NCBI GenBank assembly: GCA_037131245.1
Contig: JBAXRK010000002.1
Location: 28,143 to 92,142 of the forward strand
Direction: 5' to 3'
Length of the DNA: 64,000 bases
Origin: Candidatus Omnitrophota bacterium
GTDB lineage: Bacteria > Omnitrophota > Gorgyraeia > Zapsychrales > Fredricksoniimonadaceae
Positions 5,881 through 29,325 of this stretch are shown here, in pieces. The first letter of the stretch is position 1; each line of letters opens with the position of its first letter. A program made the position numbers and the translations under genes. The notes under the pieces were generated by a model. That model was not told where the DNA came from and made no database searches. It was given only the letters and a program-made list of their open reading frames with translations.

Positions 5881-5892
5881 GGCAAGAGGCCT

Positions 5893-7785: not shown

Positions 7786-7905
7786 ATGAACCGTCGTGAT
7801 TGCCCGCATTGCGGCTTGTGGTTCCGTTTCGACGAAGCAAAACCAGCCGGGAAAAACAGCGTGCGCTGCCCCAACTGCGGCTGGGAGATCCCCTCCGCGG
7901 CCTAG
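7786..7905 (+). CDS. small zinc-ribbon protein (39 aa, two CPxCG knuckles)
   Basis: Below the 60-aa cutoff, so not in the ORF track. Read directly from sequence as MNRRDCPHCGLWFRFDEAKPAGKNSVRCPNCGWEIPSAA, ending in TAG at 7903-7905. Sits in the helicase-desaturase gap in a third frame. Confidence 0.35.
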   Translation: MNRRDCPHCGLWFRFDEAKPAGKNSVRCPNCGWEIPSAA

Positions 7906-7978
7906 TTCTCTTCTACAAAGTATTTGTAATCGATCGCGTCATTGGTACGACTTTAATGTCGAAGGAAGGTGTGTGCCG

Positions 7979-8974: not shown

Positions 8975-9017
8975 GGATTTGTGTTGCGCTGTTCCATGTT
9001 TCATCAATAATGGGTTC

Positions 9018-10520: not shown

Positions 10521-12010
10521 TCCGCGATATTTCCCGCCTTGAGAATAAAACTTTTGACGTGCTTATTGTCGGTGGCGGCATTAACGGCGCGGCTATCGCG
10601 CATCTGGCCGCGGCTTGCGGCGCTTCGGTCGCGCTGCTGGAGAAAGATGATTTTGCTGCCGGCACGTCCAGCCGTTCCAGCAAGCTTTTGCACGGCGGCA
10701 TTCGGTATCTGGAACATTTTGAGTTCGATCTGGTGGCGGAGTCGTTGCGTGAGAGGGCTTTGCAGTTAAAGACCGCGCCGCATTTGACCGGCGCTTTGCG
10801 TTTTGTGATCCCGGTTTATAAAGATAGCCCGCGGCCCTTGTGGATGATGAAGGTGGGGGTTCGTCTTTATGATCTTTTAAGCGGGCGGGACCGACTTGGG
10901 CTGCCCCGTTATTTATCGACAGAGGATGTAGTGAAGGAGGCGCCCGGCATCAGCCGGGAGGGTTTGACCGGTGGCGTTGAGTATTGGGACGCGCAGATGG
11001 ATGATGCCCGCCTCTGCCTGGAAAATGTTTTGATGGCCGACACGTTCGGCGCGGTGGCGGCGAATAATGTTGAGGTGGAGCAGTTTATCCTGGAGGCCGG
11101 ACGCGCCGTCGGCGTTCAGGCCCGGGACCGTTCGGCCGGGCGCTCGTTCGCGGTGAAGGGGCGGACGGTCATTCTGGCGGCTGGCCCATGGTCGGATAGC
11201 CTGATCCGGAAGCTGGACCCCGCCGCGCCACGCCGTTTACGCCCGACCAAGGGCGTGCACATTGTTTATCAGGGTCAGGTGTCGTCGAGCGCTTTTTTGC
11301 TGCAGGGTCACAGCGACGGACGGGTTTTCTTTGTGATCCCTTACAAGGGCCATACCTTGATCGGCACGACCGATACGGACTATACCGGTGATCCCGGTTC
11401 GGTGTCCGTTGAGGAAGAAGACCTTCATTATCTTTTGACCGAAGCGGCGCGGGTTTTCCCTCGGCTGACGTTTGAGCGCTCCCGGATCCTGTCGTCTTTC
11501 GCGGGTGTCAGGCCTTTGGTCGCGGAGAAGGGCCATCCCTCGAAGGTCTCCCGCCGTCACGTGGTTGAGCGTTTGAAGAACGGCGCCTTCGCGGTGATGG
11601 GCGGAAAGTACACGACCTATCGCGCGATCGCCGAGGACACGTTGCGGCTCGCGCTGCCTGATCGATGGCGGTGCCGTCCGCCGATGAAGGATTATATTCT
11701 TTTCGGCAGCGGTTCCCTGGAAAAAGCGGCCGTTTGCGCGTCGCGTTATGGTCTTTCGGCCGATACGGTGGCATACTTGCAGGGGGTCTATGGCAGCCGG
11801 GCGGAAGATGTTTTGGCCCTGACGCACGGCCGGCCGGAGCTTAAAGCGGTTGTTTGTTCCTGCTCGCCGGCCATCGCGGCCCAGGTGGTCTATGCCCGGG
11901 ATGTCGAGATGGCCCGGGATGTGGATGATGTCCTGGAACGCCGGCTGGGGGTGTCGTACCTTGGTTGCCGGAATGAGGGTTGCCGGCAGCGGTATTGCCA
12001 ATATTTCTAA
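10517..12010 (+). CDS. glpD: FAD-dependent glycerol-3-phosphate dehydrogenase
   Basis: Start at ATG 10517 overlaps the glpK stop (ATGA). FDVLIVGGGINGAAIA dinucleotide-binding motif and the GlpD/GlpA family body. Confidence 0.8.
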   Translation: MIRDISRLENKTFDVLIVGGGINGAAIAHLAAACGASVALLEKDDFAAGTSSRSSKLLHGGIRYLEHFEFDLVAESLRERALQLKTAPHLTGALRFVIPVYKDSPRPLWMMKVGVRLYDLLSGRDRLGLPRYLSTEDVVKEAPGISREGLTGGVEYWDAQMDDARLCLENVLMADTFGAVAANNVEVEQFILEAGRAVGVQARDRSAGRSFAVKGRTVILAAGPWSDSLIRKLDPAAPRRLRPTKGVHIVYQGQVSSSAFLLQGHSDGRVFFVIPYKGHTLIGTTDTDYTGDPGSVSVEEEDLHYLLTEAARVFPRLTFERSRILSSFAGVRPLVAEKGHPSKVSRRHVVERLKNGAFAVMGGKYTTYRAIAEDTLRLALPDRWRCRPPMKDYILFGSGSLEKAAVCASRYGLSADTVAYLQGVYGSRAEDVLALTHGRPELKAVVCSCSPAIAAQVVYARDVEMARDVDDVLERRLGVSYLGCRNEGCRQRYCQYF

Positions 12011-12017
12011 CTATTCT

Positions 12018-12046
12018 ATTTTTTAAAGTGAGGACAGGGTTATAAT
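12018..12046 (+). promoter_or_regulatory. candidate promoter of the fatty-acid oxidation operon
   Basis: Perfect TATAAT at 12041-12046 in an AT-rich gap 34 nt upstream of the fadB/J-type gene. The -35 element is poor (ATTTTT). Confidence 0.3.
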
Positions 12047-12079
12047 AAAAGTAGTACAAACAAACTTTAGAGGTGACTT

Positions 12080-14191
12080 ATGAATGTTATTTACAAAGAA
12101 GAGAATAACATCGCAACCATCACCTTTGATCAGCCAGATTCCAGAGTCAATGTCCTCAATACCGCCACCCTGCTCGAGTTCGAGCATATCATCGACCAGT
12201 TAAGCAGCCCCAGCCTTCTCAAAGCCGTTATCATTCAAAGCGCCAAGAAAGATATTTTTATCGCCGGCGCTGACATCAAGGAGATCGAGACCATTACGGA
12301 AGTGGCCGACGGAAAGGCCAAATCGCAGGCCGGGCAGCGCATTTTTAACAAACTTGAAGACCTGCCGATGGCGACTGTCGCGGTCATTGACGGGGCGGCA
12401 TTGGGTGGCGGTTGCGAGCTGGCTTTGGCTTGCCGGTACCGTGTAGCGACCTTTAGCGACAAGGTGCGGATCGGGGTCCCTGAAGTGAATCTTGGCTTTG
12501 TTCCCGGTTTTGGCGGGACATATCGTTTGCCTAAATTGCTTGGCTTGCAGGGGGCGCTCAAGCTGATCCTGGGCGGCAGCCCGGTGGACAGCCGGGTAGC
12601 GCTTAAAATGGGCCTGGTCGACCGGCTGTATTCCCAGCAAGGGCTGGCGGCGCGCGTGCGCGAGTTTATTGACGAGGTCACGGCGGCCAGCAAGCGGCGC
12701 AAATATCCGGTGATCGCGCCCAAGGGGTTCAACGCGTTCCTGGAAAAAACATCGCTCGGCCGCGGGTTTATTTTCAGCAAATCCCGCGAGAGTGTACTTA
12801 AAGTTTCCAAAGGGTTTTATCCCGCTCCGGTCAAGGCGCTCGATGTTGTTCGCGTAACATGTGGGGTATCTCGCCGGAAAGCGCTGGATATTGAATCAAC
12901 AGCTTTCGCCGAGCTGGCGGTGACCCCGATCTCCAAGAATCTGGTGAGCCTTTTTTATCTTTCCGAGAAATTCAAGAAGCTTTCTGTGCCTGGAGCAACG
13001 GTGGTGCCCGCGGCGGTCGCCAAGGCCGGGGTCATCGGCGCCGGTATCATGGGCGGCGGGATCGCGCAGCTGTTAAGCAACCGGGGTGTCTGGGTCAGGC
13101 TTAAAGATATCAATCATGACGCGATCGGCAAGGGGCTAAAAGCCGCCTGGGATGTTTATAAGGAGGCGCTGAAGCGTAAGAAGATGAAACAGGGTGAAGC
13201 GGCGGCGCGCATGGCGATGATCTCGGGCACGCTCGATCATAGCGGCCTTAGGGACGCCGATATCGTTATAGAAGCAGTGGTTGAGAATATGGAGATCAAG
13301 AAGAAGGTTTTCGGCGAGCTTAGCCGCCAGGTTTCGCCCAAAACCATCCTGGCGTCGAATACGTCGTCGCTGTCGGTCAGCGAAATGGGCAGCGCGGTAG
13401 CGGATCCTTCAAAAATGATCGGGTTCCATTTCTTTAATCCGGTGCATCGCATGCCGCTGCTGGAGATCATCACGACGCCAAAAACGTCGCAGGAAACACT
13501 GGTGACGACGCTCGAGTTCGCCAAGCGCCTGGGCAAAACGCCGATCATTGTTAAGGACGCGCCGGGTTTTCTGGTCAACCGCATCCTGCTGGCGTATATC
13601 AATGAAGCGGGGCGGGTGCTGGAAGAGGGTGGGGATATCGAGGGGCTCGACAGGCTGGTGACCGATTTCGGGATGCCGATGGGTCCGTTCACTCTTTCCG
13701 ATGAGGTCGGGCTCGACGTTGGCGTGAAAGTGTTGCATATCCTGGAGGCGGGCTTAGGCGCGCGTTTCAAGTCGTGCGCGATCTTCGACAAGGTTTTTGA
13801 ATTGAAATTGCTGGGTAAGAAGTCCGGGCAGGGTTTTTATATCCATGGCAAACGCCGGCAGGTCAATCCTAAAGTCCAGGCGCTGGTCAAGGGAGGCGCA
13901 CCGGATAAAGACGCCCTCAAGCGGATGATCTACATCATGATCAATGAAGCCGCGCGGATCATCGAAGAAGGCGTGGTCGACGGGGCGGATACGGTCGATA
14001 TCGGGATGATCATGGGGACCGGGTTCCCGCCGTTCCGCGGCGGCTTGTTGCGTTATGCTGATTCGCTGGGGATCGACACACTGGTCGGTGAATTGCAGGC
14101 GCTCGAAGAGCGTTTCAAGGACGGACGTTTCAAGCCGGCGGCGTACCTGCTTGGTTTGCAGAAACAGAAGACGTCGTTTTATCCGGCCTGA
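12080..14191 (+). CDS. fatty-acid oxidation complex alpha subunit (enoyl-CoA hydratase / 3-hydroxyacyl-CoA dehydrogenase, FadB/FadJ type)
   Basis: 703 aa. N-terminal crotonase fold, central NAD-binding GVIGAGIMGGGIA, C-terminal 3HCDH domain. AGAGGTGA RBS. Confidence 0.85.
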   Translation: MNVIYKEENNIATITFDQPDSRVNVLNTATLLEFEHIIDQLSSPSLLKAVIIQSAKKDIFIAGADIKEIETITEVADGKAKSQAGQRIFNKLEDLPMATVAVIDGAALGGGCELALACRYRVATFSDKVRIGVPEVNLGFVPGFGGTYRLPKLLGLQGALKLILGGSPVDSRVALKMGLVDRLYSQQGLAARVREFIDEVTAASKRRKYPVIAPKGFNAFLEKTSLGRGFIFSKSRESVLKVSKGFYPAPVKALDVVRVTCGVSRRKALDIESTAFAELAVTPISKNLVSLFYLSEKFKKLSVPGATVVPAAVAKAGVIGAGIMGGGIAQLLSNRGVWVRLKDINHDAIGKGLKAAWDVYKEALKRKKMKQGEAAARMAMISGTLDHSGLRDADIVIEAVVENMEIKKKVFGELSRQVSPKTILASNTSSLSVSEMGSAVADPSKMIGFHFFNPVHRMPLLEIITTPKTSQETLVTTLEFAKRLGKTPIIVKDAPGFLVNRILLAYINEAGRVLEEGGDIEGLDRLVTDFGMPMGPFTLSDEVGLDVGVKVLHILEAGLGARFKSCAIFDKVFELKLLGKKSGQGFYIHGKRRQVNPKVQALVKGGAPDKDALKRMIYIMINEAARIIEEGVVDGADTVDIGMIMGTGFPPFRGGLLRYADSLGIDTLVGELQALEERFKDGRFKPAAYLLGLQKQKTSFYPA

Positions 14192-14221
14192 AGCCGGTAA
14201 GGTGCCATCAAGGGGGATTCT

Positions 14222-15703
14222 ATGGCTTCCTGGAAGAACATAACGGCTTTATCGTACCCGCAGATCCGTGAATTACAGGATCGCAAGCTACGTCATTTTT
14301 TCCGCACGCAGGTATATCCCTTCAGTGCTTATTATCGCCGGATCTTTGATGAGCAGAAGATCCATCCGCGCCATATCCAGGGCATCAGTGACCTGAAGCA
14401 CCTGCCTTTTACCAGCAAGCTCGACTTGGTTGCGGATGACAACCCGCAGCGGTTCATGGATTATATTCTCAAGCCAGACCAGGAAAAGATCCGCGCGTCT
14501 TGGCCGAAGTATAAACTGGCGGGCCTCGCCCTCAAGTCGCTGCTGCGGGGCAAAGAGGAGGTCATGGCCGGACTGGCGAAGGAATACCGCCCGATCTTCA
14601 TGACCTTTACCACCGGAACGGCCCATTCGCCGGTTCCGGTGACGTATAGCCGCTATGACCTGGACAATCTTTGTATTTCCGGCAGCCGCATGGTGAGCCT
14701 CTTTGACATCAAGTCTGACGAACGCATCATGAATATCTTTCCGTTCGCGCCGCACCTGGCGTTCTGGCAGACGTTCTTCGGCGCGCTGGAGGCGGATGTT
14801 TTCGCGCTGAGTACCGGCGGCGGCAAGGTGATGGGGACAGAAGGGAACCTGACGGCCATCAAGCGCACCAAACCGTCGGTGATCCTGGGTGTGCCCAGTT
14901 ATATTTATCACATGGTCCGGGTCGCGCAGGAACGCAAATACGACTTGTCGTATATCAAGAAGGTGGTGCTGGGCGCCGGCCGGGTGACGGCGGAATACAA
15001 GTTAAAGCTTTCCACGATGCTGGCGGATTGCGGCGCCAAAGACGTGCTGATCTTCGGGACTTATGGTTTTACCGAGGCGCGCATGGCCTGGGCCGAATGC
15101 CCGACAGACAACAAATTGTCGAGTGGCTATCATTTGTACCCGGACAAGGAGATCTTCGAGATCATCGATCCCAAGACCGGCACGGTCCTTGATGACGGGG
15201 CGGACGGCGAGATCGTTTATACGCCCCTTGACTCGAGGGCTTCCGTGATCCTGCGTTACCGCACGGGGGATTTCGTAAAAGGCGGCATCAGCCATGAGCC
15301 CTGCCCGCATTGCGGCCGGATGACCCTGCGGCTGTCGAGCGATATTTCCCGTTTGTCGGATATCAAGGGGCTGGAGCTCGCCAAGATCAAGGGCGTGCTG
15401 GTGAATATGGACCATTTCGCGCAGGCGCTCAACGGCATGCCCGAGATCGATGAATGGCAGATCGAGATCCGTAAGCATAACAATGATCCCCACGACAGCG
15501 ACGAGCTGGTGGTTTATGTGGCGCACCGCAAGGAACTTAATGAGGCGGCGTTCGCGGATCAGTTGAAAGACCGTTTGATGGGGACGACGGAACTGGCGCC
15601 TAATGAGGTGAAGTTCATTCCGCTGGCGGAAATGGTAAAACGGCTGGAACTTGAAACAGCTAACAAGGAAAAACGGATCCTGGACAACAGGCCGAAAAGC
15701 TAA
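14222..15703 (+). CDS. adenylate-forming enzyme, phenylacetate-CoA ligase (PaaK) / CoF390-synthetase-like
   Basis: 493 aa. TTGTAHSPVPV resembles the PaaK-family P-loop. Placed inside a beta-oxidation operon, which suggests acyl-CoA ligase function. Assignment by resemblance only. Confidence 0.5.
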   Translation: MASWKNITALSYPQIRELQDRKLRHFFRTQVYPFSAYYRRIFDEQKIHPRHIQGISDLKHLPFTSKLDLVADDNPQRFMDYILKPDQEKIRASWPKYKLAGLALKSLLRGKEEVMAGLAKEYRPIFMTFTTGTAHSPVPVTYSRYDLDNLCISGSRMVSLFDIKSDERIMNIFPFAPHLAFWQTFFGALEADVFALSTGGGKVMGTEGNLTAIKRTKPSVILGVPSYIYHMVRVAQERKYDLSYIKKVVLGAGRVTAEYKLKLSTMLADCGAKDVLIFGTYGFTEARMAWAECPTDNKLSSGYHLYPDKEIFEIIDPKTGTVLDDGADGEIVYTPLDSRASVILRYRTGDFVKGGISHEPCPHCGRMTLRLSSDISRLSDIKGLELAKIKGVLVNMDHFAQALNGMPEIDEWQIEIRKHNNDPHDSDELVVYVAHRKELNEAAFADQLKDRLMGTTELAPNEVKFIPLAEMVKRLELETANKEKRILDNRPKS

Positions 15704-15781: not shown

Positions 15782-17059
15782 ATGGAACGTATCGCGATCA
15801 TCGACGGAGTAAGGACGCCATTTTGCAAGATGGGGACGGACTTCAATTTCATGAGCGCGCAGGAGCTCGGGCGCATTGCCGCCCGCGAGCTGATCGAGCG
15901 TACCGGATTCGACGTCCGCCATATTGACGAGGTCATTTTCGGCTGCGTTGGGCAGCCGGCCGACGCAGCGAATATCGCGCGGGTCATCGGCTTGCTGGCG
16001 GGCGTTCCCCAATCGACGCCGGCCTTCACGGTGCATCGTAATTGCGCTTCCGGCATAGAAGCGGTGGTGTCCGCGGCCGTCAAGATCCGGGCCGGTGAAG
16101 GCCGCTGCATGCTGGTCGGTGGCACGGAATCGATGAGCAATATCCCGCTTTTTTTCAGCAAGGCGTCCCAGGAGCTTTTCATGGAGCTGGGCCGTGCCAA
16201 AACCTTGTTGGCAAAACTCGCGGTGATGGCTAAATTCTGCCCGCATCATTTTTCACCTGTGGTCGGTTTACAGCTGGGGCTGACTGACCCGATCTGCAGC
16301 CTGAACATGGGGCAGACGGCGGAAGTCCTGGTGCAGGAATTCGGCATTACCCGACGGGAGCAGGACCAGTTCTCGCTGGAAAGCCATTTGAAAGCGCTCG
16401 CCTCCCGGGCCATCCTGGCGGAAGAGATCGTGCCGGTTATCCCGGGGCCGAAATACACCAAAGCCACTACCATGGATAACGGGCCGCGGGAGGGGCAGAC
16501 GATCGAAGCGCTGACCAAGCTCCGGCCTTTCTTTGATAAAGCGACTGGTACGATCACGGCGGGGAATTCCAGCCAGATCACGGACGGCGCGGCCGCCCTG
16601 CTGGTGGCTTCCGAAAGCCGGGCCAAAGAGCTGGGGTTAAAGCCGCTGGGGTATGTGCGGGCTTTCGCTTATGCCGGGGTTGAACCGTCCCGGATGGGTA
16701 TTGGGCCGGCGCACGCGATCCCTCTGGCACTTAAGAAAGCAGGCCTGAAATTATCTGACATGCAGGCTATTGAGATCAATGAGGCCTTTGCCGCCCAGGT
16801 CATTGCGTGCATGAAAGCGCTGGCGTCACCGGCCTTCGCGGCAAAGTTCGGGTTCGAAGGGTTTACGGGCGAGATCGATCCGGCGAAGCTTAACAAACAT
16901 GGCGGGGGCGTGGCGCTGGGGCATCCGGTAGGCACCACGGGCGCGCGGATCATTCTGACCACGCTTAAGCGGTTACAAAGGGAGAATCAGGATTTCGGCG
17001 TGGCGTCGCTTTGTATCGGGGGAGGCCAGGGTGCGGCGGTGGTCCTGGAACGGGCGTAG
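15782..17059 (+). CDS. acetyl-CoA acyltransferase / 3-ketoacyl-CoA thiolase
   Basis: 425 aa. Thiolase catalytic Cys context NCASG, C-terminal GHPVGTTGARI and CIGGGQG motifs. GGAGG RBS. Confidence 0.85.
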   Translation: MERIAIIDGVRTPFCKMGTDFNFMSAQELGRIAARELIERTGFDVRHIDEVIFGCVGQPADAANIARVIGLLAGVPQSTPAFTVHRNCASGIEAVVSAAVKIRAGEGRCMLVGGTESMSNIPLFFSKASQELFMELGRAKTLLAKLAVMAKFCPHHFSPVVGLQLGLTDPICSLNMGQTAEVLVQEFGITRREQDQFSLESHLKALASRAILAEEIVPVIPGPKYTKATTMDNGPREGQTIEALTKLRPFFDKATGTITAGNSSQITDGAAALLVASESRAKELGLKPLGYVRAFAYAGVEPSRMGIGPAHAIPLALKKAGLKLSDMQAIEINEAFAAQVIACMKALASPAFAAKFGFEGFTGEIDPAKLNKHGGGVALGHPVGTTGARIILTTLKRLQRENQDFGVASLCIGGGQGAAVVLERA

Positions 17060-17089: not shown

Positions 17090-18943
17090 ATGAGCATGTT
17101 CGATAAAAATATCAGCAAGGAAAAACTTCAGTCCCTGGAGTTTGCCGAGGCGGCGCGCGAGCAGCAGTGGCAGTTTCCCAGTTTCGCGCTCAAGCTTTTT
17201 CACGGCAGCGTGGCCTGGTCGCTGATCCACCCTTTTCCGGAACAGTCCGCCGAAGAGAAGAAGGCCGGCGATGAATACCTGGCTAAGATGGAGAAGTTCT
17301 TGCGTGAGAACCTCAATCCCGATGAGGTTGACCGCACGGGGCTGATCCCCGAGAAGGTTTATAAGGGCCTGGGCGAGCTCAAGGCGTTCGCGCTCAAGAT
17401 CCCCAAAGAGTACGGCGGGATGGAATTTAGCCAATACAATTATAACCGCATTATGCACCTGGTCGCCAGTTACTGCGGTTCGACGGCGGTGCTTTTGTCG
17501 GCGCATCAAAGCATCGGCGTGCCGCAGCCGCTGAAATTGTTCGGCACCCCCGAGCAGAAGAATAAGTACCTGCCGCTGTTTGCCAAAGGCGCGATCTCGG
17601 CGTTCGCCTTGACCGAACCGACGGTCGGTTCCGATCCGCGCAAGATGCTCACCACCGCGACACCGACGGAAGACGGGAAGCATTTTATTATCAACGGCGA
17701 AAAGCTCTGGTGTACTAACGGCCTGATCGCCGACGTTATCGCGGTGATGGCGGTCACCCCGCCCAAGATCGTCAAGGGCAAAGAGGTCAAGCAGATCACG
17801 GCGTTCATCGTGGAGGGCAAAACGCCGGGGATCGAGAAGGTCCACCGCTGTGATTTCATGGGATTACATGGCATTCAGATCGGGCTCATCCGGTTCAATA
17901 ATGTGAAAGTACCGCGCGAGAATATCATCCTTGGTGAAGGCGAAGGGCTGAAGCTGGCGCTGATGACGCTGAATGTCGGCCGCCTCACCTTGCCGGCCGC
18001 ATCCGTCGGCATCGCCAAGTGGTGCATGTTCGTTACCCGTGAGTGGGCGAAAAAACGCCAGCAGTGGGGCGCGCCGATCGGGGAGCATGAATCCGTGGCG
18101 CTGAAGATGTCCTATATTGCCAGCCATACATTCGCGCTTGACGCGGTCACCTGGCTGACTTCCGCGATGGCCGACGATAAGCATCGCGATATTCGCCTGG
18201 AAGCGGCGCTGGCCAAGTTGTTCTCGACCGAGGTTTCCTGGAAGATCGCGGATGAAACCTTGCAGATCCGTGGCGGCAGCGGGTATGAATCCAGCTCTTC
18301 ACTCAAGCGTCGCGGCGTGGACGATTGGCCCGTGGAGCGGGTGCTGCGTGACGTGCGCATCAACCGGATCATCGAGGGTACCAGTGAGATCATGCACCTG
18401 TTCATCGCCCGCGAAGCGCTCGACCCGCATTTGTCGTATTTAAAGCCGCTGCTTAGCGGCCGTACGCCGATCCTGGCCAAGCTGGGCGCGGCCCTCAAGA
18501 TGATGGCCCATTACGCGGTGTGGTATCCGGGCCTGTGGGGCGGATTCTTCACCCCGCCCGAGATCGGCAGTTTGCCGGGCCCGCTGCAGCCGCAGATGAT
18601 GTATGTGCGCAGGGCCAGCCGCCGCTTGGCGCGCGGGACCTTCCATCAGATGGTCATTTATCAGCAGAAGCTCGAGAGCAAGCAGAGCATCCTCAACCGC
18701 ATCGTTGATATCGGGACGGAGCTCTTTTCAATTTCCGCGGTTTGCTCATACGCGGTGATGTTGCACAAGAACGGCCAGGAGAATGCGCTCGACCTGGCGG
18801 TGGCCTATTGCCTGGAATCCCGTAAAAGGGTTGATGCTCTTTTCCTGGAGGCCGGCTCGAACCATGACAAGGTCAGTTTGAAGCTCGCGAAAAATGTCCT
18901 TGGCGGAGAGTTTAAATGGATGGAGAACGAAGTTATAAAATAA
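17090..18943 (+). CDS. large acyl-CoA dehydrogenase (FadE-like)
   Basis: 617 aa. ACAD N/M/C domains (FALTEP..GSD, QIRGGSGY) with a C-terminal extension. AAGGAGA RBS. Confidence 0.8.
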   Translation: MSMFDKNISKEKLQSLEFAEAAREQQWQFPSFALKLFHGSVAWSLIHPFPEQSAEEKKAGDEYLAKMEKFLRENLNPDEVDRTGLIPEKVYKGLGELKAFALKIPKEYGGMEFSQYNYNRIMHLVASYCGSTAVLLSAHQSIGVPQPLKLFGTPEQKNKYLPLFAKGAISAFALTEPTVGSDPRKMLTTATPTEDGKHFIINGEKLWCTNGLIADVIAVMAVTPPKIVKGKEVKQITAFIVEGKTPGIEKVHRCDFMGLHGIQIGLIRFNNVKVPRENIILGEGEGLKLALMTLNVGRLTLPAASVGIAKWCMFVTREWAKKRQQWGAPIGEHESVALKMSYIASHTFALDAVTWLTSAMADDKHRDIRLEAALAKLFSTEVSWKIADETLQIRGGSGYESSSSLKRRGVDDWPVERVLRDVRINRIIEGTSEIMHLFIAREALDPHLSYLKPLLSGRTPILAKLGAALKMMAHYAVWYPGLWGGFFTPPEIGSLPGPLQPQMMYVRRASRRLARGTFHQMVIYQQKLESKQSILNRIVDIGTELFSISAVCSYAVMLHKNGQENALDLAVAYCLESRKRVDALFLEAGSNHDKVSLKLAKNVLGGEFKWMENEVIK

Positions 18944-21027
18944 GCGCCGACCCGTCTTTCTTCAACAAGCGGGCGGTCGTCAAGGAGATCACGATCTTCG
19001 GCGGTCTTAGCTGGCTGACGGTCAACCGCATCGCGCGCCTGGTCGAGCTTGTTGAGTTCCCTAAAGGGAGCCTGATCTGCCGGCAGGGCGCGCCCGCGGA
19101 CGCGTTCTACGCTATGGTTTCCGGCCGGGTCACGTCTTACCAGGTGGACGCCCGGGGGCAGAAGGACGTGGTTGACGTCCTGGTGCGCGGCATGCATTTC
19201 GGCACCATTTCCGCCCTGACGGGCGAGAACCATTCGCATACCTACCAGGCGGTCAATGATTCCCTGGTGCTCAAGATCAAAAAGGAAGATTTCGCCGAGC
19301 TCTTGCAGGTCACGCCTAAACTGGCGCTGGCGCTTAGCGTCAATCTGTCCCTGAAGGCCCGCGAGCGGTCGCCTGTCCCGTCGGGATCACACGAGAACGC
19401 GCTGATCGCGGTCTACGCCCCGTCCGGGGGGAACGCCAGCGGTGCTTATGCCGCCAGCCTGGCCTCGTCGCTGAAAGACCAGGCGCACGGGAGCAAGGTC
19501 TTGCTGCTGCGTTTTTCATCTGATCCGTCTTCATCCCTGTTGAATTTACAGGATATTATTTCCGATCATCAGCGCAGTTTGCAGGCTGTGTCCCAGGGCA
19601 ATACAACAGTAGATACGCTGGAGGTCCGGTTCGACCCGAAGGATCCGGGGATCAGCGGGCGTATCGGCCAGTTCGCGGGCTGGTTCGTTAAGGATTATGA
19701 GCGCATTGTTTTTGACCTTTCCGGGCCGATGGAGGACGCGGTCATCAAGCTGCTGATCCAGTCGGATATTATCCATTTGTCCGTCCGGGCCCTGGAGGCG
19801 GAGCTGGAACTGGCACGGCAGGCTATTGAGGTCCTTTCACGGGAGTTGAAGGAGGAATTCAGCCCCGATAAAGTGCGGGCGGTCATTGACGGCCAGCCGG
19901 GAGAAGGGGCGCTTAAGCCGGAAGATATCCGCAAGGTCCTTAATTACGATTCGTTTGTGGTCCTGCCTTATCTGGAGGCTGACTATATTCTGGCCGTGCA
20001 AAGGCTGGGCCGGCAGATCACCGGCACCATGATCGGGCTGGTCCTCGGCGGCGGCGCGGCGCTGGGCATGGCTCATGTGGGCGTGATCCGGGTGCTGGAG
20101 CGCGAGAAGATACCGGTCGACGTGGTGGTCGGCAGCAGCATGGGGGCGCTGATCGGCGGCTTATGGGTTTCCGGCCACAACGCGGATGATCTGGAGAAGA
20201 TCGCCCGGGAATTTTCCAATCAGGCCGGCCTGCTGAAACTTTTTGACCCGCCGGTGCAGCGCGGGCTGGTGCTCCTGGTCATTATTTGCGTGTTCTGGCT
20301 GCTGGGCTACGGGTTGCTGGCGGCGTTCCTGATCTTCATGCTGATCCCGCTGGGTGTGGTGCCGGTCTCCGGTGTGGTGAAGGGCAAGGCTATCGGCCGG
20401 TGGCTTAAGAGCAAATTCGGCCGGGCGGCTTTCCATGATACGTCCGTGCCGCTGCGGGTGGTGGGCTATGACCTGCTGCACCGGCGCGAGATCGTGATCG
20501 ACCAGGGCATTATTATGGACGCGGTTTTTAAAAGCATCGCGATCCCGGGCATTATTCCGCCGGTTACTGAGGCGGGGCAGATGGTTATTGATGGCGGGGT
20601 TTTAAACCCCCTGCCGGTGAATGTGCTCACCGACATGGGCATTAAGCGCATCATCGCGGTCAATGTGCTGCAGTCGCCCGAAGAGGTTTGCTGGGGTGAA
20701 GAATGGAGCATCAAGCGCTACCGGCATATGGCCCGGGTCCCGTTCAAGCGCCATCCATGGAAATTCATTTCGTTGCGCCTGGGCGGCTTCCTGGGAAAAT
20801 TCTTATCGCCTAACATCGCGGATATTATTGTCCGCACCTTACAGGCCTCCGAGTATATCTTCGCCGAGAACAGCGGCCGGCAGGCCAATGTGCTGATCCA
20901 CCCCGACCTTCGGGGCATTCAGTGGTTCGAGCTTTACGAAGTCGATAAACTCATCCAGCGCGGGCACGAGGCCGCGATGCAGCATTTACCCGCCATGAAA
21001 GCCATGGTCAAGAAGGAGAAACAATGA
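18916..21027 (+). CDS. cyclic-nucleotide-binding domain / patatin-like phospholipase fusion
   Basis: 703 aa. N-terminal CAP-type cNMP-binding domain (FGGLSWLTVNRIARLVELVEFPKGSLICRQGAPADAFYAMVSGRV). C-terminal patatin signatures: GGGAALG (GxGxxG), GSSMG (GxSxG) and DGG. A hydrophobic hairpin is inserted between the GxSxG and DGG motifs. Overlaps the ACAD stop by 28 nt. Confidence 0.7.
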   Translation: MDGERSYKISADPSFFNKRAVVKEITIFGGLSWLTVNRIARLVELVEFPKGSLICRQGAPADAFYAMVSGRVTSYQVDARGQKDVVDVLVRGMHFGTISALTGENHSHTYQAVNDSLVLKIKKEDFAELLQVTPKLALALSVNLSLKARERSPVPSGSHENALIAVYAPSGGNASGAYAASLASSLKDQAHGSKVLLLRFSSDPSSSLLNLQDIISDHQRSLQAVSQGNTTVDTLEVRFDPKDPGISGRIGQFAGWFVKDYERIVFDLSGPMEDAVIKLLIQSDIIHLSVRALEAELELARQAIEVLSRELKEEFSPDKVRAVIDGQPGEGALKPEDIRKVLNYDSFVVLPYLEADYILAVQRLGRQITGTMIGLVLGGGAALGMAHVGVIRVLEREKIPVDVVVGSSMGALIGGLWVSGHNADDLEKIAREFSNQAGLLKLFDPPVQRGLVLLVIICVFWLLGYGLLAAFLIFMLIPLGVVPVSGVVKGKAIGRWLKSKFGRAAFHDTSVPLRVVGYDLLHRREIVIDQGIIMDAVFKSIAIPGIIPPVTEAGQMVIDGGVLNPLPVNVLTDMGIKRIIAVNVLQSPEEVCWGEEWSIKRYRHMARVPFKRHPWKFISLRLGGFLGKFLSPNIADIIVRTLQASEYIFAENSGRQANVLIHPDLRGIQWFELYEVDKLIQRGHEAAMQHLPAMKAMVKKEKQ

Positions 21028-21395
21028 AAACCATTCTGATCGTTGAAGATACCCAGGATTACGCGGACGCCCTTTCCTTCATCCTGTCACGGAAAGGCTT
21101 TAACGTTGCCCTGGCGCCCGATGGAGCGACCGGCGTCACCAAAGCCGTCAGGCTTAAGCCCGACCTGATCCTGATGGACGTGATGCTGCCCGACCAGGAC
21201 GGCGCGGAGACGGTCACGCAGATCCGGGAACATCAGGCCCTATCCGGCATTCCTATCGTTTTCCTGACCGCGCTTACCTCTGATAACAAGCCTGGCGACC
21301 AAACGATCGTGGTCCATGACCGGCCTTATCCGGCGCTTTCCAAAATGCTGGGGCAGGATGAGATCGTCAAGCGGGTCGAGCAATTCCTCGCTTAA
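21024..21395 (+). CDS. stand-alone response-regulator receiver (CheY-like REC) protein
   Basis: 123 aa. ILIVEDTQD, phospho-acceptor context LILMDVMLPDQDG, then LTA..K. No output domain. ATGA overlap with the upstream gene. Confidence 0.75.
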   Translation: MKTILIVEDTQDYADALSFILSRKGFNVALAPDGATGVTKAVRLKPDLILMDVMLPDQDGAETVTQIREHQALSGIPIVFLTALTSDNKPGDQTIVVHDRPYPALSKMLGQDEIVKRVEQFLA

Positions 21396-21497: not shown

Positions 21498-23081
21498 ATG
21501 ATAAATATAAGCCCTTCAAAATTAGCCGTGATCGCAGGCCTGGCCATTCTTCTGGTGGCGGCGATCCTCTATAAGCAGTCGATCGAAAAAGTGGTCATGC
21601 CCGGCCGCCTGGCCGAGGCCCATGCCAAGTATGAGAGCCAATGCATCAAATGTCATTCCGCTTTCAAAAAAGGTGAGCAGAATGCCCTGTGCCTCGATTG
21701 CCATAAAGACGTCGCCGGCGACTTAAAGGTGCATCAGGGTTTGCACGGCCAGATCGTGGCCATTTCGAGCAAGGATTGTAAATCCTGCCATCCCGACCAT
21801 ATGGGCCGGTCTTTTGTTATCGCCCGCCTGGATAAAGCCACCTTCAAACACGACTGGACAGACTTTCCCTTGCACGACGCGCACGCGGGCCTGAGCGTGA
21901 CCTGCGACGCCTGCCATACGGCCGGTAAAAAACATCGAGATGCTCCGAAGGATTGTTTCAGCTGCCATCAGAAGGACGATCATCATAAGGGCGCCCTGGG
22001 CAAGAATTGCGCGGATTGCCACAAGGAAACGGCCTGGAAGGAAACGTATTTCAATCATGCCAAGACGCACTTTTTATTGACGGGCAAGCATCAGAAGGTG
22101 GCTTGCAATGCCTGTCATACCAACGAGACGTATAAGAATACGCCGCTCGACTGCAAGTCCTGCCATATGATCAACGATGTCCACGCCAGCCCTAAGGAAG
22201 AGCGCTGTGAACGCTGTCATAATCCGGAGGATTGGAAAAAGGTCACCTTTTTGCATGATACGGCTACCAAGTATCCTTTGAAAGGCGCGCATGTTCAGGC
22301 GGCCTGCGCCGCTTGCCATAAAGCGAACCTGTTCACCGTTAAGACAGGAACGCAATGCGTTGACTGCCATAAGGTTGATGATGTGCATAAAGAAAAGAAC
22401 GGTGTTAAATGCGCGTCCTGCCATACCGAGAATGACTGGAAGAAAGTGACGTTCGACCATGATCGCGATACGCATTTCAAGCTGTCGGGCCGGCATGGCA
22501 AGACCCAGTGTGATGCTTGCCATAAAGCGCCGTCCCTGGACATGAAAGTTGATAAAGTCTGTAACGCCTGCCACGAGTCGCGGGATGTGCATAAGGGGCA
22601 GGTCGGTGTTGATTGCCAGGTGTGCCATAACGAAGCGGGGTGGAAGGAAAGCATTAAGTTCGATCATGACCTGGGCGGTTTTCCGTTGATCGGCCAGCAC
22701 ACGGTCCTTGCCTGTAGTCAATGTCACAAGACCATGGCTTTTAAAGATGCCAAGATCGATTGTAATTCCTGTCATGCCAAAGAGGACGTTCACAAGAAAG
22801 GGTTGGGGACCGAGTGCGCGGATTGCCATAATCCCAACGGGTGGAAGTTCTGGCAGTTCGACCACGATACGCAAACGAAATACAAGCTTGAAGGGCCGCA
22901 CGCGGGGATCAAGTGCCAGGCCTGCCACTATCAGCCGATGGGTAAAGTGGTAACGGCGTCGACGAATTGTATCGCCTGCCACGAGAAGGACGATGCTCAC
23001 AAGGGGCAGTTCGGGGAGAACTGCGAGCAATGCCACGCGGTCGATTCGTTCAAGAAATATTTCAAGGGGAGAAAGAACTGA
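21498..23081 (+). CDS. multihaem cytochrome c (~21 CxxCH motifs), signal-anchored
   Basis: 527 aa. N-terminal TM/signal segment. 21 CxxCH motifs counted by hand (CIKCH, CLDCH, CKSCH ... CEQCH). Very haem-dense. Confidence 0.85.
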   Translation: MINISPSKLAVIAGLAILLVAAILYKQSIEKVVMPGRLAEAHAKYESQCIKCHSAFKKGEQNALCLDCHKDVAGDLKVHQGLHGQIVAISSKDCKSCHPDHMGRSFVIARLDKATFKHDWTDFPLHDAHAGLSVTCDACHTAGKKHRDAPKDCFSCHQKDDHHKGALGKNCADCHKETAWKETYFNHAKTHFLLTGKHQKVACNACHTNETYKNTPLDCKSCHMINDVHASPKEERCERCHNPEDWKKVTFLHDTATKYPLKGAHVQAACAACHKANLFTVKTGTQCVDCHKVDDVHKEKNGVKCASCHTENDWKKVTFDHDRDTHFKLSGRHGKTQCDACHKAPSLDMKVDKVCNACHESRDVHKGQVGVDCQVCHNEAGWKESIKFDHDLGGFPLIGQHTVLACSQCHKTMAFKDAKIDCNSCHAKEDVHKKGLGTECADCHNPNGWKFWQFDHDTQTKYKLEGPHAGIKCQACHYQPMGKVVTASTNCIACHEKDDAHKGQFGENCEQCHAVDSFKKYFKGRKN

Positions 23082-26000
23082 TGCGACATCTATTCTTGAC
23101 GGGCTTGCTGATGGTGTTCGTTGTGGCGGGCGCTGGCGCGGCGCTGGCTGCCGATGCGCCGGCGTTCGACCATTTCGCGACCGGCTATCCTCTTAATGGC
23201 GCGCATCGGGGGATCTCTTGCGATAAATGCCATATCCGCGGGGTGTTCAAAGGGACGCCGAAAGTGTGCGGTTCCTGCCATATTTCCGGCGGCTCTTTCG
23301 CGGCGACGCCCAAATCGGCGAATCATATTCAGAGCAGTGAGCGTTGCGATGATTGCCATTCCACGGACAGTTTCAGCCACGCGACGATCAACCATGCCCT
23401 TTTTACCGGCACGTGTTCGAGTTGTCATAATGGCACGATCGCGACGGGAAAATCGGCGGCGCATATCCCCTCATCAAGCGCTTGCGCGACCTGCCATGCC
23501 ACCAGTGCCTGGGTCCCGACGAAACGCATTGATCATGCTTTTGTCGTTGGCACCTGCGCGAGCTGCCATAACGGGTCAACCGCGACGGGAAAACCGGCGA
23601 CTCACCTGGCGACGAACGCGGCGTGCAGCACCTGCCATGGCACGTCCAGTTGGGCGACATCATCTTTTGATCATAGCGGGATCAGCGGGGTGTGTTCTTC
23701 CTGCCATAATGGAACAACGGCCACGGGAAAGTCCGCGACGCATGTGGCGACCAGCACGAATTGCAGTGCCTGCCATGGCACGGCTAATTGGGCGATCAAT
23801 CGTTTTGACCACACCCAAGCCAGCGGTGCCTGCTCGAGTTGTCATAATGGGACGGCGGCGACGGGTAAGGCGGCGACGCATATCGCGTCCGCCAGCACGT
23901 GCGCCAGCTGCCATTCGACGTCTTCCTGGACGGCGGGGACCAAGGTGGACCATGCTTTTGTCACGGGGACTTGCGCCAACTGTCATAACGGCACGTCGGC
24001 CACCGGAAAACCGGCTACGCACGTTGCCACGACGGCTAATTGCAGCAGCTGTCACAGCACGGCCAGTTGGGCGGTGGCGTCGTTCACGCATGCCGCGGTT
24101 TCCGGAAGTTGTGCAAGCTGCCATAATGGTACAACGGCGACAGGGAAATCGCCGACGCATGTCGCGACCAGTACGAATTGCAGTGCCTGTCACGGGACGT
24201 CCCATTGGGCGGTGACCTCTTTTGATCATACCCAGGCGGTGGGGGCCTGTTCCAGTTGCCATAATGGGACGGCGGCGACGGGAAAGCCGGCCACGCATAT
24301 CGCGTCTGCCAGCACTTGCGCCAGTTGTCATTCGACCTCTTCCTGGACGGCGGGGACCAAGGTGGACCATGCTTTTGTTACGGGGACTTGCGCGAGCTGC
24401 CATAACGGGACGACCGCGACCGGTAAATCGCCGACGCATATCGCCACCTCTGGCAGCTGTAATGCCTGCCATGGCACGTCCAGCTGGGTTATGTCGACCT
24501 TTGATCATAGCCAGGCCAGCGGAACCTGTTCGAGTTGCCATAACGGGACAGCGGCAACGGGTAAGCCGGCGACGCATATTGGCTCTGCCAGCACCTGCGC
24601 CAGCTGTCATAATACGACGGCCTGGACGCCCTTGACCCGGATGGACCATACGGCCGCGACCGGGACCTGCGCGAATTGTCATAACGGGACGGCAGCAACG
24701 GGCAAGCCGGCCACGCATGTGGCGACGACGGGCAGTTGTGATGCCTGCCATTCAACCTCCAGCTGGGTGGTTTCTTCTTTCGATCACAGCAAAGCCAGCG
24801 GCACGTGCGTGAGCTGCCATAATGGAACGACCGCGACGGGGAAATCGGCCACGCATGTGGCGACCAGTACGAATTGCACCGCTTGTCACAATACGAACAA
24901 TTGGGTGGTGACGGCTTTTGATCATACGCAAGCAGTTGGCACGTGTTCAACCTGCCATAATGGGACGGCGGCAACGGGTAAGTCGGCGACGCACATTGCT
25001 TCCGCCAGCACTTGCGCGAGTTGCCACTCGACAGCCACTTGGTCGCCGGCGACCCGCGTGGACCATACGGCGGTGACCGGGACTTGCGCCAGCTGCCATA
25101 ACGGGACGACGGCCACCGGTAAACCGGCGACGCACGTGCCGACAACGGCTAGCTGTAATACGTGCCACGGCACTTCCAGTTGGGTTGTTGCGGCCTTTAA
25201 TCATAGCGGGGTGACGGGTACATGCGCGAGTTGTCATAACGGGACGACGGCGACCGGTAAATCGGCGACGCACGTGCCGACCAGTACCAATTGTAGCGCT
25301 TGTCATAACACGAACAACTGGGTGGTGACGGCTTTCGATCACAGCCAGGCGGTAGGTGCGTGTTCCACCTGTCATAACGGGACGGCCGCGACCGGTAAAT
25401 CGCCGACACATATTGCTTCAGCCAGCACCTGCGCCAGCTGCCATAACACGACAGTGTGGAGCCCGGTGACACGGGTGGACCATACGGCGGTGAGCGGCAC
25501 CTGCGCGAGCTGTCATAACGGGACAGCGGCCACAGGCAAGCCGGCCACGCATATTGCCACCACCGGTAATTGTGATGCTTGCCATTCAACCTCCAGCTGG
25601 GTGGTGGCGACGTTCGACCACAGCAAAGCCAGCGGCACGTGCGTGAGCTGCCATAACGGGACGACGGCGACGGGCAAGTCGGCCACGCACGTGGCGACCA
25701 GCACGAATTGCAGCGCCTGCCACAATACGAATAATTGGGTTGTAACGGCTTTCGACCATAGCCAGGCGGTTGGCACATGCTCAACGTGCCATAACGGGAC
25801 AGCGGCGACGGGGAAGTCGGCGACGCATATTGCTTCAGCCAGCACCTGCGCGAGCTGCCATTCAACGTCGGTGTGGAGCCCGGTAACGCGGGTGGACCAT
25901 ACGGCGGTGACCGGCACGTGCGCCAGCTGCCATAATGGCACGGCCGCGACAGGGAAGCCGGCCACGCATGTGGCGACCACGAGCAATTGCAATGCCTGCC

Positions 26001-27166
26001 ACGGAACGAGTTCCTGGCTTATTTCCCGGTTCGATCATTCCCAGGCAACGGGGACCTGCGTCAGCTGCCATAACGGGACGGCAGCGACCGGTAAATCGCC
26101 CACGCATATCACCACGTCAACCGCTTGCGCGAACTGCCATAATACGACGGCCTGGAGCCCGGTGACACGGGTGGACCACACGTCGGTGACCGGCACGTGC
26201 GCGAGCTGCCATAACGGAACGAAGGCGACAGGCAAGTCGGCCACGCATATCGCGACATCGGGTGCTTGTGACGCGTGTCATAACGCGACGGCCTGGACGC
26301 CGGTAACGCGGATCGACCATACGCTGGTCACCGGCACGTGTGTTTCCTGCCATAACGGCACGGCAGCAACGGGTAAGTCGGTCACGCATATCAGCACGTC
26401 GACCGCTTGCGCGAACTGTCATAATACGACGGCCTGGAGCCCGGTGACACGGGTGGACCATACGGCCGTGACCGGCAGCTGCTCTAGCTGTCATAACGGA
26501 ACGGCGGCGACCGGGAAAACACCGACGCATATCAATACCACGAATGCTTGCGACAGCTGTCATTCCACAACCACCTGGACGGCGGTCACGCGCGTGGATC
26601 ATACGGCGGTGGTCGGGACCTGCGCGAGCTGCCATAACGGGACGATCGCGACAGGAAAGACGCCCACCCATATCCCGTCTTCCACCAGCTGTGGTTCCTG
26701 CCATAACACGAATGCCTGGTTACCGGCGGTTTTCGACCATACCGGTGTGGCGCAGACCTGCGTGACCTGCCATAATGGCACAACCGTGGCCGGCAAGTCG
26801 GCGAGCCATATGAGCACAACGAACAGCTGCAACCTGTGCCATTCCACCGTGGCCTGGGTACCGGTCGCCCGCGTTGACCACACGGCGGTCAGCGGCACCT
26901 GCTACAGTTGCCATAACGGGACGGTAGCGACGGGTAAGGGCCCGTTGCATATGAATACGAGCAACACGTGTACCAATTGCCATTCCACGTCGAACTGGAC
27001 GGTAGCGGATAATAGGGTGAGCCATACGGATGTTATCGGGACCTGCACCAGCTGCCATGACGGGCTGACGCATGACGGCATGACCGTTCAGGGTAAGCCG
27101 CGCGGCCATCCGGCGACAAACAAGGATTGCGGCGCTTGCCATTCAACAAGAACCTTTAGTATGTAA
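23081..27166 (+). CDS. giant tandem-repeat multihaem cytochrome c (~1361 aa, ~57 CxxCH motifs)
   Basis: Start ATG 23081 overlaps the upstream TGA by 1 nt, in frame with track ORF 22967. Signal peptide MRHLFLTGLLMVFVVAGAGAALAA. Body built of ~46-47-aa Thr/Ser/Asn-rich modules, each with two CxxCH (TCxSCHNGTxATGK...CxxCH.T..W). Manual count ~57 haem motifs. Confidence 0.85.
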   Translation: MRHLFLTGLLMVFVVAGAGAALAADAPAFDHFATGYPLNGAHRGISCDKCHIRGVFKGTPKVCGSCHISGGSFAATPKSANHIQSSERCDDCHSTDSFSHATINHALFTGTCSSCHNGTIATGKSAAHIPSSSACATCHATSAWVPTKRIDHAFVVGTCASCHNGSTATGKPATHLATNAACSTCHGTSSWATSSFDHSGISGVCSSCHNGTTATGKSATHVATSTNCSACHGTANWAINRFDHTQASGACSSCHNGTAATGKAATHIASASTCASCHSTSSWTAGTKVDHAFVTGTCANCHNGTSATGKPATHVATTANCSSCHSTASWAVASFTHAAVSGSCASCHNGTTATGKSPTHVATSTNCSACHGTSHWAVTSFDHTQAVGACSSCHNGTAATGKPATHIASASTCASCHSTSSWTAGTKVDHAFVTGTCASCHNGTTATGKSPTHIATSGSCNACHGTSSWVMSTFDHSQASGTCSSCHNGTAATGKPATHIGSASTCASCHNTTAWTPLTRMDHTAATGTCANCHNGTAATGKPATHVATTGSCDACHSTSSWVVSSFDHSKASGTCVSCHNGTTATGKSATHVATSTNCTACHNTNNWVVTAFDHTQAVGTCSTCHNGTAATGKSATHIASASTCASCHSTATWSPATRVDHTAVTGTCASCHNGTTATGKPATHVPTTASCNTCHGTSSWVVAAFNHSGVTGTCASCHNGTTATGKSATHVPTSTNCSACHNTNNWVVTAFDHSQAVGACSTCHNGTAATGKSPTHIASASTCASCHNTTVWSPVTRVDHTAVSGTCASCHNGTAATGKPATHIATTGNCDACHSTSSWVVATFDHSKASGTCVSCHNGTTATGKSATHVATSTNCSACHNTNNWVVTAFDHSQAVGTCSTCHNGTAATGKSATHIASASTCASCHSTSVWSPVTRVDHTAVTGTCASCHNGTAATGKPATHVATTSNCNACHGTSSWLISRFDHSQATGTCVSCHNGTAATGKSPTHITTSTACANCHNTTAWSPVTRVDHTSVTGTCASCHNGTKATGKSATHIATSGACDACHNATAWTPVTRIDHTLVTGTCVSCHNGTAATGKSVTHISTSTACANCHNTTAWSPVTRVDHTAVTGSCSSCHNGTAATGKTPTHINTTNACDSCHSTTTWTAVTRVDHTAVVGTCASCHNGTIATGKTPTHIPSSTSCGSCHNTNAWLPAVFDHTGVAQTCVTCHNGTTVAGKSASHMSTTNSCNLCHSTVAWVPVARVDHTAVSGTCYSCHNGTVATGKGPLHMNTSNTCTNCHSTSNWTVADNRVSHTDVIGTCTSCHDGLTHDGMTVQGKPRGHPATNKDCGACHSTRTFSM
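23410..26950. repeat. coding tandem repeat array (~140-nt double-haem module; 3-module ~417-nt higher-order repeat) inside the giant cytochrome gene
   Basis: Protein-level periodicity of 46-47 aa with module types A/B/C recurring as ABC-ABC. DNA copies e.g. 24779-25200 vs 25613-26030 are ~85% identical. The array generates many spurious long ORFs in all other frames. Confidence 0.8.
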
Positions 27167-27178
27167 TAGAGGGTGACA

Positions 27179-29317: not shown

Positions 29318-29325
29318 CAGGCAGG

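Follow-up and report, generated by a model that had tools for sequence, protein, structure and literature searches.

What does a sensor of the cyclic-nucleotide-binding (CNB) fold do on a lipase whose gene overlaps that of a fatty-acid β-oxidation enzyme? The question is raised by a 703-residue protein encoded in a 64,000-nucleotide stretch of Candidatus Omnitrophota DNA (contig JBAXRK010000002.1, positions 28,143–92,142), referred to below as the window. The protein is identical to database entry P0001, from a Candidatus Omnitrophota metagenome-assembled genome (MAG), which NCBI names 'patatin-like phospholipase family protein'. It has an N-terminal CNB-like domain, a ParA-like middle domain and a patatin domain (Table 1). 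A first-pass annotation of the window had described a second-messenger-gated lipase that releases fatty acids and glycerol for the adjacent catabolic enzymes or, alternatively, a nucleotide-activated defence effector. On balance, we favour a regulated patatin lipase that forms the lipolytic entry step feeding a β-oxidation module.

We compared the patatin domain to known families and structures. The Pfam Patatin model matches residues 375–571 at 92.6 bits, against a cutoff of 27.7. The closest solved structure by sequence is Pseudomonas PlpD (PDB 5fqu, E 4.6e-27), with GSSMG aligning to GTSMG of PlpD and IDGGV to VDGGM. These motifs hold the nucleophile Ser408 (GSSMG, nucleotides 20137–20139) and Asp559 (DGG, nucleotides 20590–20592), which are invariant in all 103 aligned family sequences. 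PlpD is also the best Foldseek match in the PDB (TM-score 0.82–0.84) to an AlphaFold2 model of the protein, built with 62 homologues (mean pLDDT 83, pTM 0.76). A patatin domain with intact GxSxG and DGG motifs, as first annotated, is thus borne out above the Pfam threshold; the feared misalignment of the catalytic residues did not occur in the PlpD comparison, and the domain is apparently an active hydrolase. Of the GxGxxG motif, read as retained at first pass, the glycines are present in the oxyanion motif GGGAALG, but leucine replaces the Arg/Lys of GGxR/KG. Among 102 family representatives clustered at 50% identity, this position is L in 26, F in 25, R in 18, Y in 15 and K in 9.

The genes upstream of the lipase follow the order glpK-glpD-fadJ/B-ligase-thiolase-acyl-CoA dehydrogenase (ACAD) that had been described, each identified by profile matches. 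The lipase open reading frame (ORF) begins inside the end of the ACAD ORF, and the reported 28-nt overlap stands, with a Shine-Dalgarno-like GGAGAG 5 nt ahead of the lipase ATG. The ACAD matches the ACAD9/VLCAD-type C-terminal domain weakly, below the threshold (24.7 bits; cutoff 27.8). There is no convincing intergenic terminator between 7.8 and 21.4 kb. A promoter and terminator scan of 5.4–23.2 kb gave weak intragenic matches only, with none in the gaps, and does not define the operon boundaries.

We explored the neighbourhoods of homologous lipase genes in one genome per species, giving 80 loci nearly all from Omnitrophota MAGs, using the window proteins as tblastn queries; ACAD adjacency was counted in the 68 loci whose upstream sequence was long enough. 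In 49 of these 68, ACAD immediately precedes the lipase gene on the same strand. The projected 28-nt overlap of the two genes is the commonest arrangement (20 loci) and is found in the closest relative (P0002, 69% identity). A fadJ gene lies at most 6 kb upstream of the lipase gene in 22 of the 80 loci, and the order fadJ-ligase-thiolase-ACAD-lipase recurs in L011 and L014. At L045, fadJ is separated from ACAD (~2 kb) by PsbP-like and tRNA-methyltransferase genes, not by a thiolase or ligase gene. Linkage of glpK and glpD to the lipase gene is specific to this genome, except that glpK is also found at L089. Many database records of this Omnitrophota-type locus (within L009–L088) are titled 'uncultured Planctomycetales bacterium' and one (L071) 'Lysobacterales'; these titles are probably labelling or binning artefacts.

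Three distant relatives also keep β-oxidation genes beside the lipase gene, in other orders. L090 (~30% identity) has lipase-ligase-thiolase-fadJ-ACAD, where the ligase is homologous to that of the window. L091 (~30% identity) has lipase, 3-hydroxyacyl-CoA dehydrogenase (3HCDH), enoyl-CoA hydratase (ECH), acyl-CoA synthetase, one unannotated gene and an MFS transporter. L089 (31% identity; 4672–15385) has glpK, a glycerophosphodiester phosphodiesterase (GDPD), lipase, 3HCDH, ECH, the β and α subunits of electron transfer flavoprotein (ETF), one unannotated gene and acyl-CoA synthetase. The L089 string is the most complete phospholipid-catabolism set seen, and holds what both deacylation products would need. 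PilZ-domain genes occur upstream of the lipase string in L089 and L091.

Several observations weigh against an entry step into β-oxidation. Of the 68 loci, 19 lack any β-oxidation gene within 6 kb; many genomes have ACAD alone beside the lipase gene, with no ligase; and there the ACAD adjacency could be synteny kept by descent and not by function. In mammals, neutral-lipid lipases such as ATGL carry a hydrophobic residue at the variable position of the glycine-rich motif and PNPLA6–9 a basic one, so the leucine of GGGAALG may point to neutral lipids as the substrate. In addition, our literature search found no biochemical data for any family member. The worry about inherited synteny is weakened because the distant relatives show shuffled gene orders: a linkage that survives rearrangement is good evidence for a functional tie between the lipase and β-oxidation. 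Together with the 49 of 68 ACAD adjacencies, the shuffled orders support the tie, proposed at first pass, of an apparently active lipase to the adjacent fatty-acid and glycerol catabolic genes.

We also considered an enzyme of membrane-lipid homeostasis resembling NTE/PNPLA6-7, which would deacylate the phospholipids and lysophospholipids of its own cell for turnover or remodelling, the ACAD merely disposing of the fatty acids. The combination of CNB and patatin domains follows the logic of PNPLA6/7, which hydrolyse phosphatidylcholine and lysophosphatidylcholine (PMC9025805, PMC5704489). The best NCBIfam match is RssA, a bacterial 'NTE family' model (NF007623, E 7e-27), although at 94.4 bits against an equivalog cutoff of 272 the score is too far below for the protein to be RssA. 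A fatty-acid desaturase gene heads the same gene string. Its product matches the DesA model at E 3e-126, just below the model cutoff, and with this desaturase and the neighbouring helicase at its head the string might also serve membrane remodelling or cold adaptation; the two genes were seen ahead of glpK in this genome only. The synteny also has a housekeeping character in four of six annotated homologue loci, where a hemC/cobA/hemD fusion, hemB and hemL come after the ACAD-lipase pair; in most of these loci, biosynthetic genes precede the pair. Against these points stands the repeated linkage, in varied orders, to complete catabolic sets (ligase, thiolase, FadJ, ACAD, ETF, GlpK, GDPD), and we regard homeostasis as an unlikely primary role, noting that it and the catabolic role are not mutually exclusive. 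The fusion itself, of porphobilinogen deaminase, uroporphyrinogen methyltransferase and uroporphyrinogen-III synthase (~675–700 residues; L003–L005, L007 and L045), is unusual.

Next to a lipase supplying β-oxidation, the nature of the sensor becomes the central issue. The CNB domain first annotated at the N-terminus is confirmed as a fold. The Pfam cNMP_binding model matches residues 46–131 at 74.8 bits (cutoff 27.5), the domain is modelled with pLDDT of 83–91, and Foldseek matches its β-barrel to the MloK1 CNB domain (TM-score 0.86) and to DNR, with ligand-bound CNB domains among the matches. The phosphate-binding cassette equivalent, FGTISALTGENHSHTYQA, was aligned in two ways. In a profile alignment, Thr97 falls at Glu72 of E. 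coli CAP and His106 at Arg82, and the HMMER alignment to Plasmodium PKG (FGE...PRSAT) likewise places Thr97 at the Glu and His106 at the Arg. The replaced Glu is the ribose (2'-OH) contact and the replaced Arg the cyclic-phosphate contact.

Both changes extend across the clade. All 120 close homologues have His106, and position 97 is Ile in 90, Val in 29 and Thr in one, with Glu in none. Among the 102 representatives, the Arg position is His in 80 and Arg in nine. The Arg-type members are the most distant of the family, and a minority of distant members carry a canonical FGE...R[ST]AT cassette; one Arg-type member, with two CNB domains (P0244), has a different gene context. Since the cassette combines an invariant His in place of the Arg with the loss of the ribose-binding Glu, the ligand is probably not cAMP or cGMP but some other small molecule. 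The closest solved single-domain protein to the sensor by sequence is the sensor domain of DNR, which is described as sensing nitric oxide through haem and is not known to bind cyclic nucleotides. Structures of a trypanosome protein kinase A (PKA) regulatory subunit (6h4g, 6hyi) are among the Foldseek matches; in the trypanosomatid subunit, CNB domains without the Arg bind purine nucleosides (PMC10959531).

Thus, the first-pass domain holds as a fold, while the cassette residues expected of a cyclic-nucleotide binder are at least in part missing, namely the Glu and the Arg. Nor did we detect a nucleotide cyclase, CD-NTase or histidine kinase domain in a Pfam scan of the window ORFs of at least 150 residues (essentially the plus-strand gene set plus one minus-strand gene). 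With the cassette contacts replaced and no cyclase among these ORFs, a 'second-messenger-gated' lipase is not supported as stated, and canonical second-messenger gating appears doubtful.

For a true cAMP- or cGMP-gated lipase, the His-type cassette would have to bind a cyclic nucleotide, and the cyclase making it would have to be encoded in another part of the genome. The domain scores well over the Pfam cNMP_binding threshold and folds like ligand-bound CNB domains. The cassette glycines and the Ser/Thr after the Arg position are kept, and some distant members have the canonical cassette. Furthermore, the basic residues K50, R71 and R91 of the domain are invariant; R71 and R91 might stand in for the missing Arg, and the three could still bind phosphate and so a cyclic nucleotide, which counts against our assignment of a different ligand. 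Set against this are the replacement of both signature contacts, fixed across the clade, the lack of a cyclase among the scanned window ORFs and the closeness to DNR, and we judge cyclic-nucleotide gating to be rather improbable.

The segment between the sensor and the patatin domain had been called an uncharacterised linker. We find instead a degenerate ParA/MinD-type domain. Several homologues carry a PF13614 (AAA_31) annotation between their CNB and patatin domains, and a profile of the middle region from 25 family members matches the ParA-family ATPase 3ea0 in the PDB at E 2e-18, followed by MinD, Soj, FlhG and FleN. Individually, the middle domains of 21 of the 25 members match PF13614, whereas the middle segment of the window protein, searched alone, matched neither PF13614 nor anything else. 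The Walker A equivalent is SGGNASG in the window protein and KGSGSST in the clade consensus, and the Walker A lysine is gone. The motif is GK[ST] in 21 of the 102 representatives, GR[ST] in eight and neither in 73; the L089 relative has an intact GKT. Judged by these profiles and motifs, the middle region has a P-loop fold of the ParA/MinD type whose nucleotide-binding lysine has disappeared from most lineages, the present one among them. Its likeliest role is that of a scaffold, independent of nucleotide, for dimerisation or for coupling between sensor and lipase.

Tentatively, we suggest that the His-type cassette (GE[PN]HS) marks an unrecognised class of CNB-fold sensor for a non-cyclic metabolite linked to lipid catabolism, which would switch an anchored lipase via the dead ParA-like module. 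Candidate ligands for such a class are, for example, acyl-CoA, CoA, a fatty acid or an energy-reporting nucleoside or nucleotide. Our confidence in any particular ligand is much lower than in a regulated lipase feeding β-oxidation.

The hydrophobic hairpin noted within the patatin domain at first pass is real and is predicted by AlphaFold2 as two 16-residue helices, 447–462 and 466–481. It is better described as an insertion, present in 63 and absent from 57 of 120 close homologues. In their alignment, the insert is 34–38 residues long (49 in one case), sits exactly between FDPP and P-x-SGL, and is hydrophobic throughout (mean Kyte-Doolittle ~2) with a poorly conserved sequence. Because the hairpin leaves and re-enters a single globular domain, and its arms are each rather short to cross a membrane completely, we infer an anchor, monotopic or re-entrant, that the family gained in the course of its evolution. 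The C-terminal extension is predicted by AlphaFold2 to form helices at 588–605, 614–630, 634–654 and 676–699, and the C-terminal part of RssA matches residues 486–700 weakly.

Taken together, we propose a cytoplasmic, membrane-anchored acyl hydrolase of the patatin type using the Ser408/Asp559 dyad; the cytoplasmic location is suggested because the protein lacks an N-terminal hydrophobic segment. The lipase would strip fatty acids from glycerolipids, putatively phospholipids or lysophospholipids and possibly acylglycerols. The acyl-CoA ligase, ACAD, FadJ and thiolase encoded alongside would take up the released fatty acids, and GlpK and GlpD would receive the glycerol backbone. The CNB-like sensor presumably restrains or triggers the lipase on binding a small molecule, with the ParA-like domain coupling the two. 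The 34-residue hairpin, gained by part of the family, may anchor the active-site face monotopically in the lipid surface.

Table 1 Features of the lipase gene, its product and the neighbouring genes in the window (coordinates are positions in the window).
Feature	Position	Strand	Extent in protein	Basis or remark
DEAD-box helicase and Delta5-type fatty-acid desaturase genes	6486–8974	+		Head-to-tail, directly before glpK
glpK, glycerol kinase	8979–10520	+		Profile matches
glpD, glycerol-3-phosphate dehydrogenase	10478–12010	+		Profile matches
FadJ/FadB multifunctional enoyl-CoA hydratase / 3-hydroxyacyl-CoA dehydrogenase	12080–14191	+		Profile matches
AMP-binding acyl-CoA ligase, PaaK/FlxY-like	14222–15703	+		Profile matches
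Thiolase, FadA/FadI-like	15782–17059	+		Profile matches
ACAD	17090–18943	+	617 residues	Conserved upstream partner of the lipase gene
Three-domain protein gene (CNB-like / ParA-like / patatin)	18916–21027	+	703 residues	ORF call (ATG start), Pfam, database identity
CNB-like domain, β-barrel and C-helix	18955–19365	+	~14–150	PF00027, E 5.6e-21
Phosphate-binding-cassette equivalent	19198–19251	+	95–112	
Degenerate ParA/MinD-type P-loop domain	19393–20025	+	~160–370	Family profile
Patatin catalytic domain	20029–20685	+	~372–590	PF01734, E 4.7e-26
Hydrophobic helical hairpin inside patatin domain	20251–20358	+	446–481	Between FDPP and PVSGVV
C-terminal helical extension	20677–21015	+	~588–700	Conserved columns across the family
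Single-domain response-regulator receiver	21024–21395	+	123 residues	Response_reg PF00072, E 2.6e-19

We investigated whether the receiver gene that follows the lipase gene takes part in its regulation. The receiver domain, as first annotated, is confirmed to be intact, with E8, D9, D52, T82 and K107 all in place, and its ORF overlaps that of the lipase by 4 nt (ATGA) behind an AGGAG motif. Phosphorylation signalling through such a coupled receiver might control the lipase, for example with the receiver bound to the ParA-like domain in the way of TadZ/CpaE-type proteins, and a protein with REC-like and ParA domains (3fkq) is among the PDB relatives of the middle domain, although weakly (E 0.06). 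However, the receiver lies directly 3' of the lipase gene in this genome only (two assemblies, L001 and L002): none was found downstream of the lipase gene in the loci of 80 other species (tblastn, 88 loci), nor in P0002. One subclade, which lacks the upstream ACAD, does have receiver genes 0.65–1.9 kb ahead of the lipase gene (L008, L034, L059, L062, L081, L087). At L008 (5831–7210) they encode a double-receiver protein and a single-domain receiver, in otherwise similar synteny with PsbP-like and tRNA methyltransferase genes upstream. Since receiver genes are very common, roughly two such independent cases would be expected by chance, and the scanned ORFs of the window include no histidine kinase. 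Thus, the lipase-receiver coupling, flagged at first pass as notable if the protein were a defence effector, is specific to this genome and incidental, and receiver control of the lipase is very improbable.

The first-pass annotation also raised a CBASS effector akin to CapV. Such a protein would be a nucleotide-activated, membrane-disrupting abortive-infection effector of CapV or Pycsar type, perhaps wired to the receiver. The folds are indeed shared: CapV and CapE match the patatin fold by Foldseek (E ~1e-9 to 1e-10, TM-score ~0.6), and the CNB part alone resembles the PycTIR models of PADLOC (E 1e-10). An AbiE toxin-antitoxin pair is found 16 kb off. In contrast, the PADLOC patatin-effector models do not match the patatin domain at E <= 0.01, no CD-NTase was found in the examined homologue contexts, and the scanned ORFs of the window, where a cyclase or CD-NTase partner had been sought, contain neither. 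The family is also widespread in Omnitrophota, is flanked by biosynthetic and haem-biosynthesis genes in four of the six annotated loci, is linked to β-oxidation genes and has no conserved receiver beside it. With no cyclase or CD-NTase partner among the scanned ORFs, no patatin-effector match and a housekeeping gene context, we reject a CBASS or Pycsar effector, which is the least probable of the functions considered here.

We compared the protein to characterised systems. NTE/PNPLA6-7 likewise carry CNB domains ahead of a patatin domain that has a Ser/Asp dyad, are membrane-bound, and contact lipid surfaces through the catalytic region; the regulatory role of their CNB domains is unresolved (PMC9025805, PMC5704489, PMC7103881, PMC9319352). 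Their three CNB domains and N-terminal transmembrane helix set them apart, as does the lack of a ParA-like domain, whereas the Omnitrophota protein has a single CNB domain, its cassette of the His type, a degenerate P-loop domain between sensor and lipase, and a hairpin within the patatin domain, and lacks the N-terminal hydrophobic segment. The glycine-rich motif of NTE/PNPLA6-7 keeps its Arg (GGGGARG). The closest patatin domains by sequence and fold, with the same motif order, are those of RssA/YchK-type 'NTE family' proteins and PlpD (5fqu/5fya). PlpD is the passenger of a secreted type Vd autotransporter, unlike the Omnitrophota protein, which is probably cytoplasmic and has sensor and scaffold domains.

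Among named bacterial proteins, the closest precedent for an esterase with a CNB domain is M. tuberculosis Rv2565, likened here by its description. The esterase domain is NTE/patatin-like, which would make Rv2565 the closest named bacterial case of CNB joined to patatin as well. In published listings, Rv2565 figures among the esterases of phosphatidylcholine metabolism (PMC10865251) and among the proteins with PF00027 (PMC4886424). The central domain is homologous to the ParA/MinD/TadZ-type NTPases (PF13614; 3ea0, MinD, Soj, FlhG/FleN), and some distant members keep GK[ST]; here the Walker A lysine is gone and the domain is fused between sensor and lipase rather than standing alone. The cAMP-independent PKA regulatory subunit of trypanosomatids likewise has a CNB cassette without the Arg and a non-cyclic ligand (PMC10959531), but with other replacement residues and another output domain, and is a precedent for ligand change only. 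CapV/CapE and the Pycsar effectors share folds with the protein (patatin, and the CNB domain of PycTIR), but here no cyclase partner was found among the scanned window ORFs, and no defence-island context.

A literature search for a CNB-ParA-patatin protein, its His-type cassette or Omnitrophota patatins found no paper describing them. Automated annotations already name the pieces, as 'phospholipase RssA/CRP-like cAMP-binding protein' at JGI and once as 'BcsQ' for the middle domain. The protein is probably an uncharacterised variant of the CNB-regulated patatin lipases, with a ligand other than a canonical cyclic nucleotide. The main metabolic survey of Omnitrophota leaves lipids, lipases and phospholipases unmentioned, and refers to fatty acids once, regarding short-chain acids (PMC10066038).

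The remainder of the window holds other genes of interest, those described between 21498 and 38801 being on the plus strand. Directly after the receiver gene come two very large multihaem c-type cytochromes, one of 527 residues with 21 CxxCH motifs (21498–23081) and one of ~1,380–1,400 residues with 57 (22967–27166), which match cytochrome c7, c3 and MtrC/MtrF-like Pfam families. One public assembly instead has a string of unannotated minus-strand ORFs called over this region, which looks like mis-annotation. The cytochrome genes are followed by those for a 714-residue TPR protein and a 667-residue protein with Sel1 and multiple ankyrin repeats (27173–31239); ankyrin repeats are often associated with host interaction. 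The AbiEi antitoxin and AbiEii nucleotidyltransferase toxin (37363–38801; PADLOC E 2e-51 and 1e-65) lie between dTDP-rhamnose genes and a polysaccharide export gene. From ~41600 to 64000, the G+C content drops from ~0.57 to 0.43–0.50 over a long polysaccharide-biosynthesis cluster with two 'sugar-transfer associated' ATP-grasp genes, flippases, glycosyltransferases, a deacetylase and export proteins. This region may have been acquired horizontally.

The practical value of these assignments is modest: they advance the annotation and do not reveal a new kind of system. The dead ParA-like spacer and the fixed replacement of Arg by His give concrete features to test, and the protein would offer a bacterial, tractable relative of the NTE/PNPLA6-7 design. 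It would also be a second natural case, after the trypanosome PKA, of a CNB fold with a probably changed ligand. If the lipase acts as we propose, lipid catabolism would begin with a regulated step in these bacteria, a large and uncultured phylum whose ultra-small members may depend on hosts. Should the tentative metabolite-sensor class also prove true, Omnitrophota and related lineages would possess a dedicated metabolite-gated switch for lipolysis upstream of β-oxidation.

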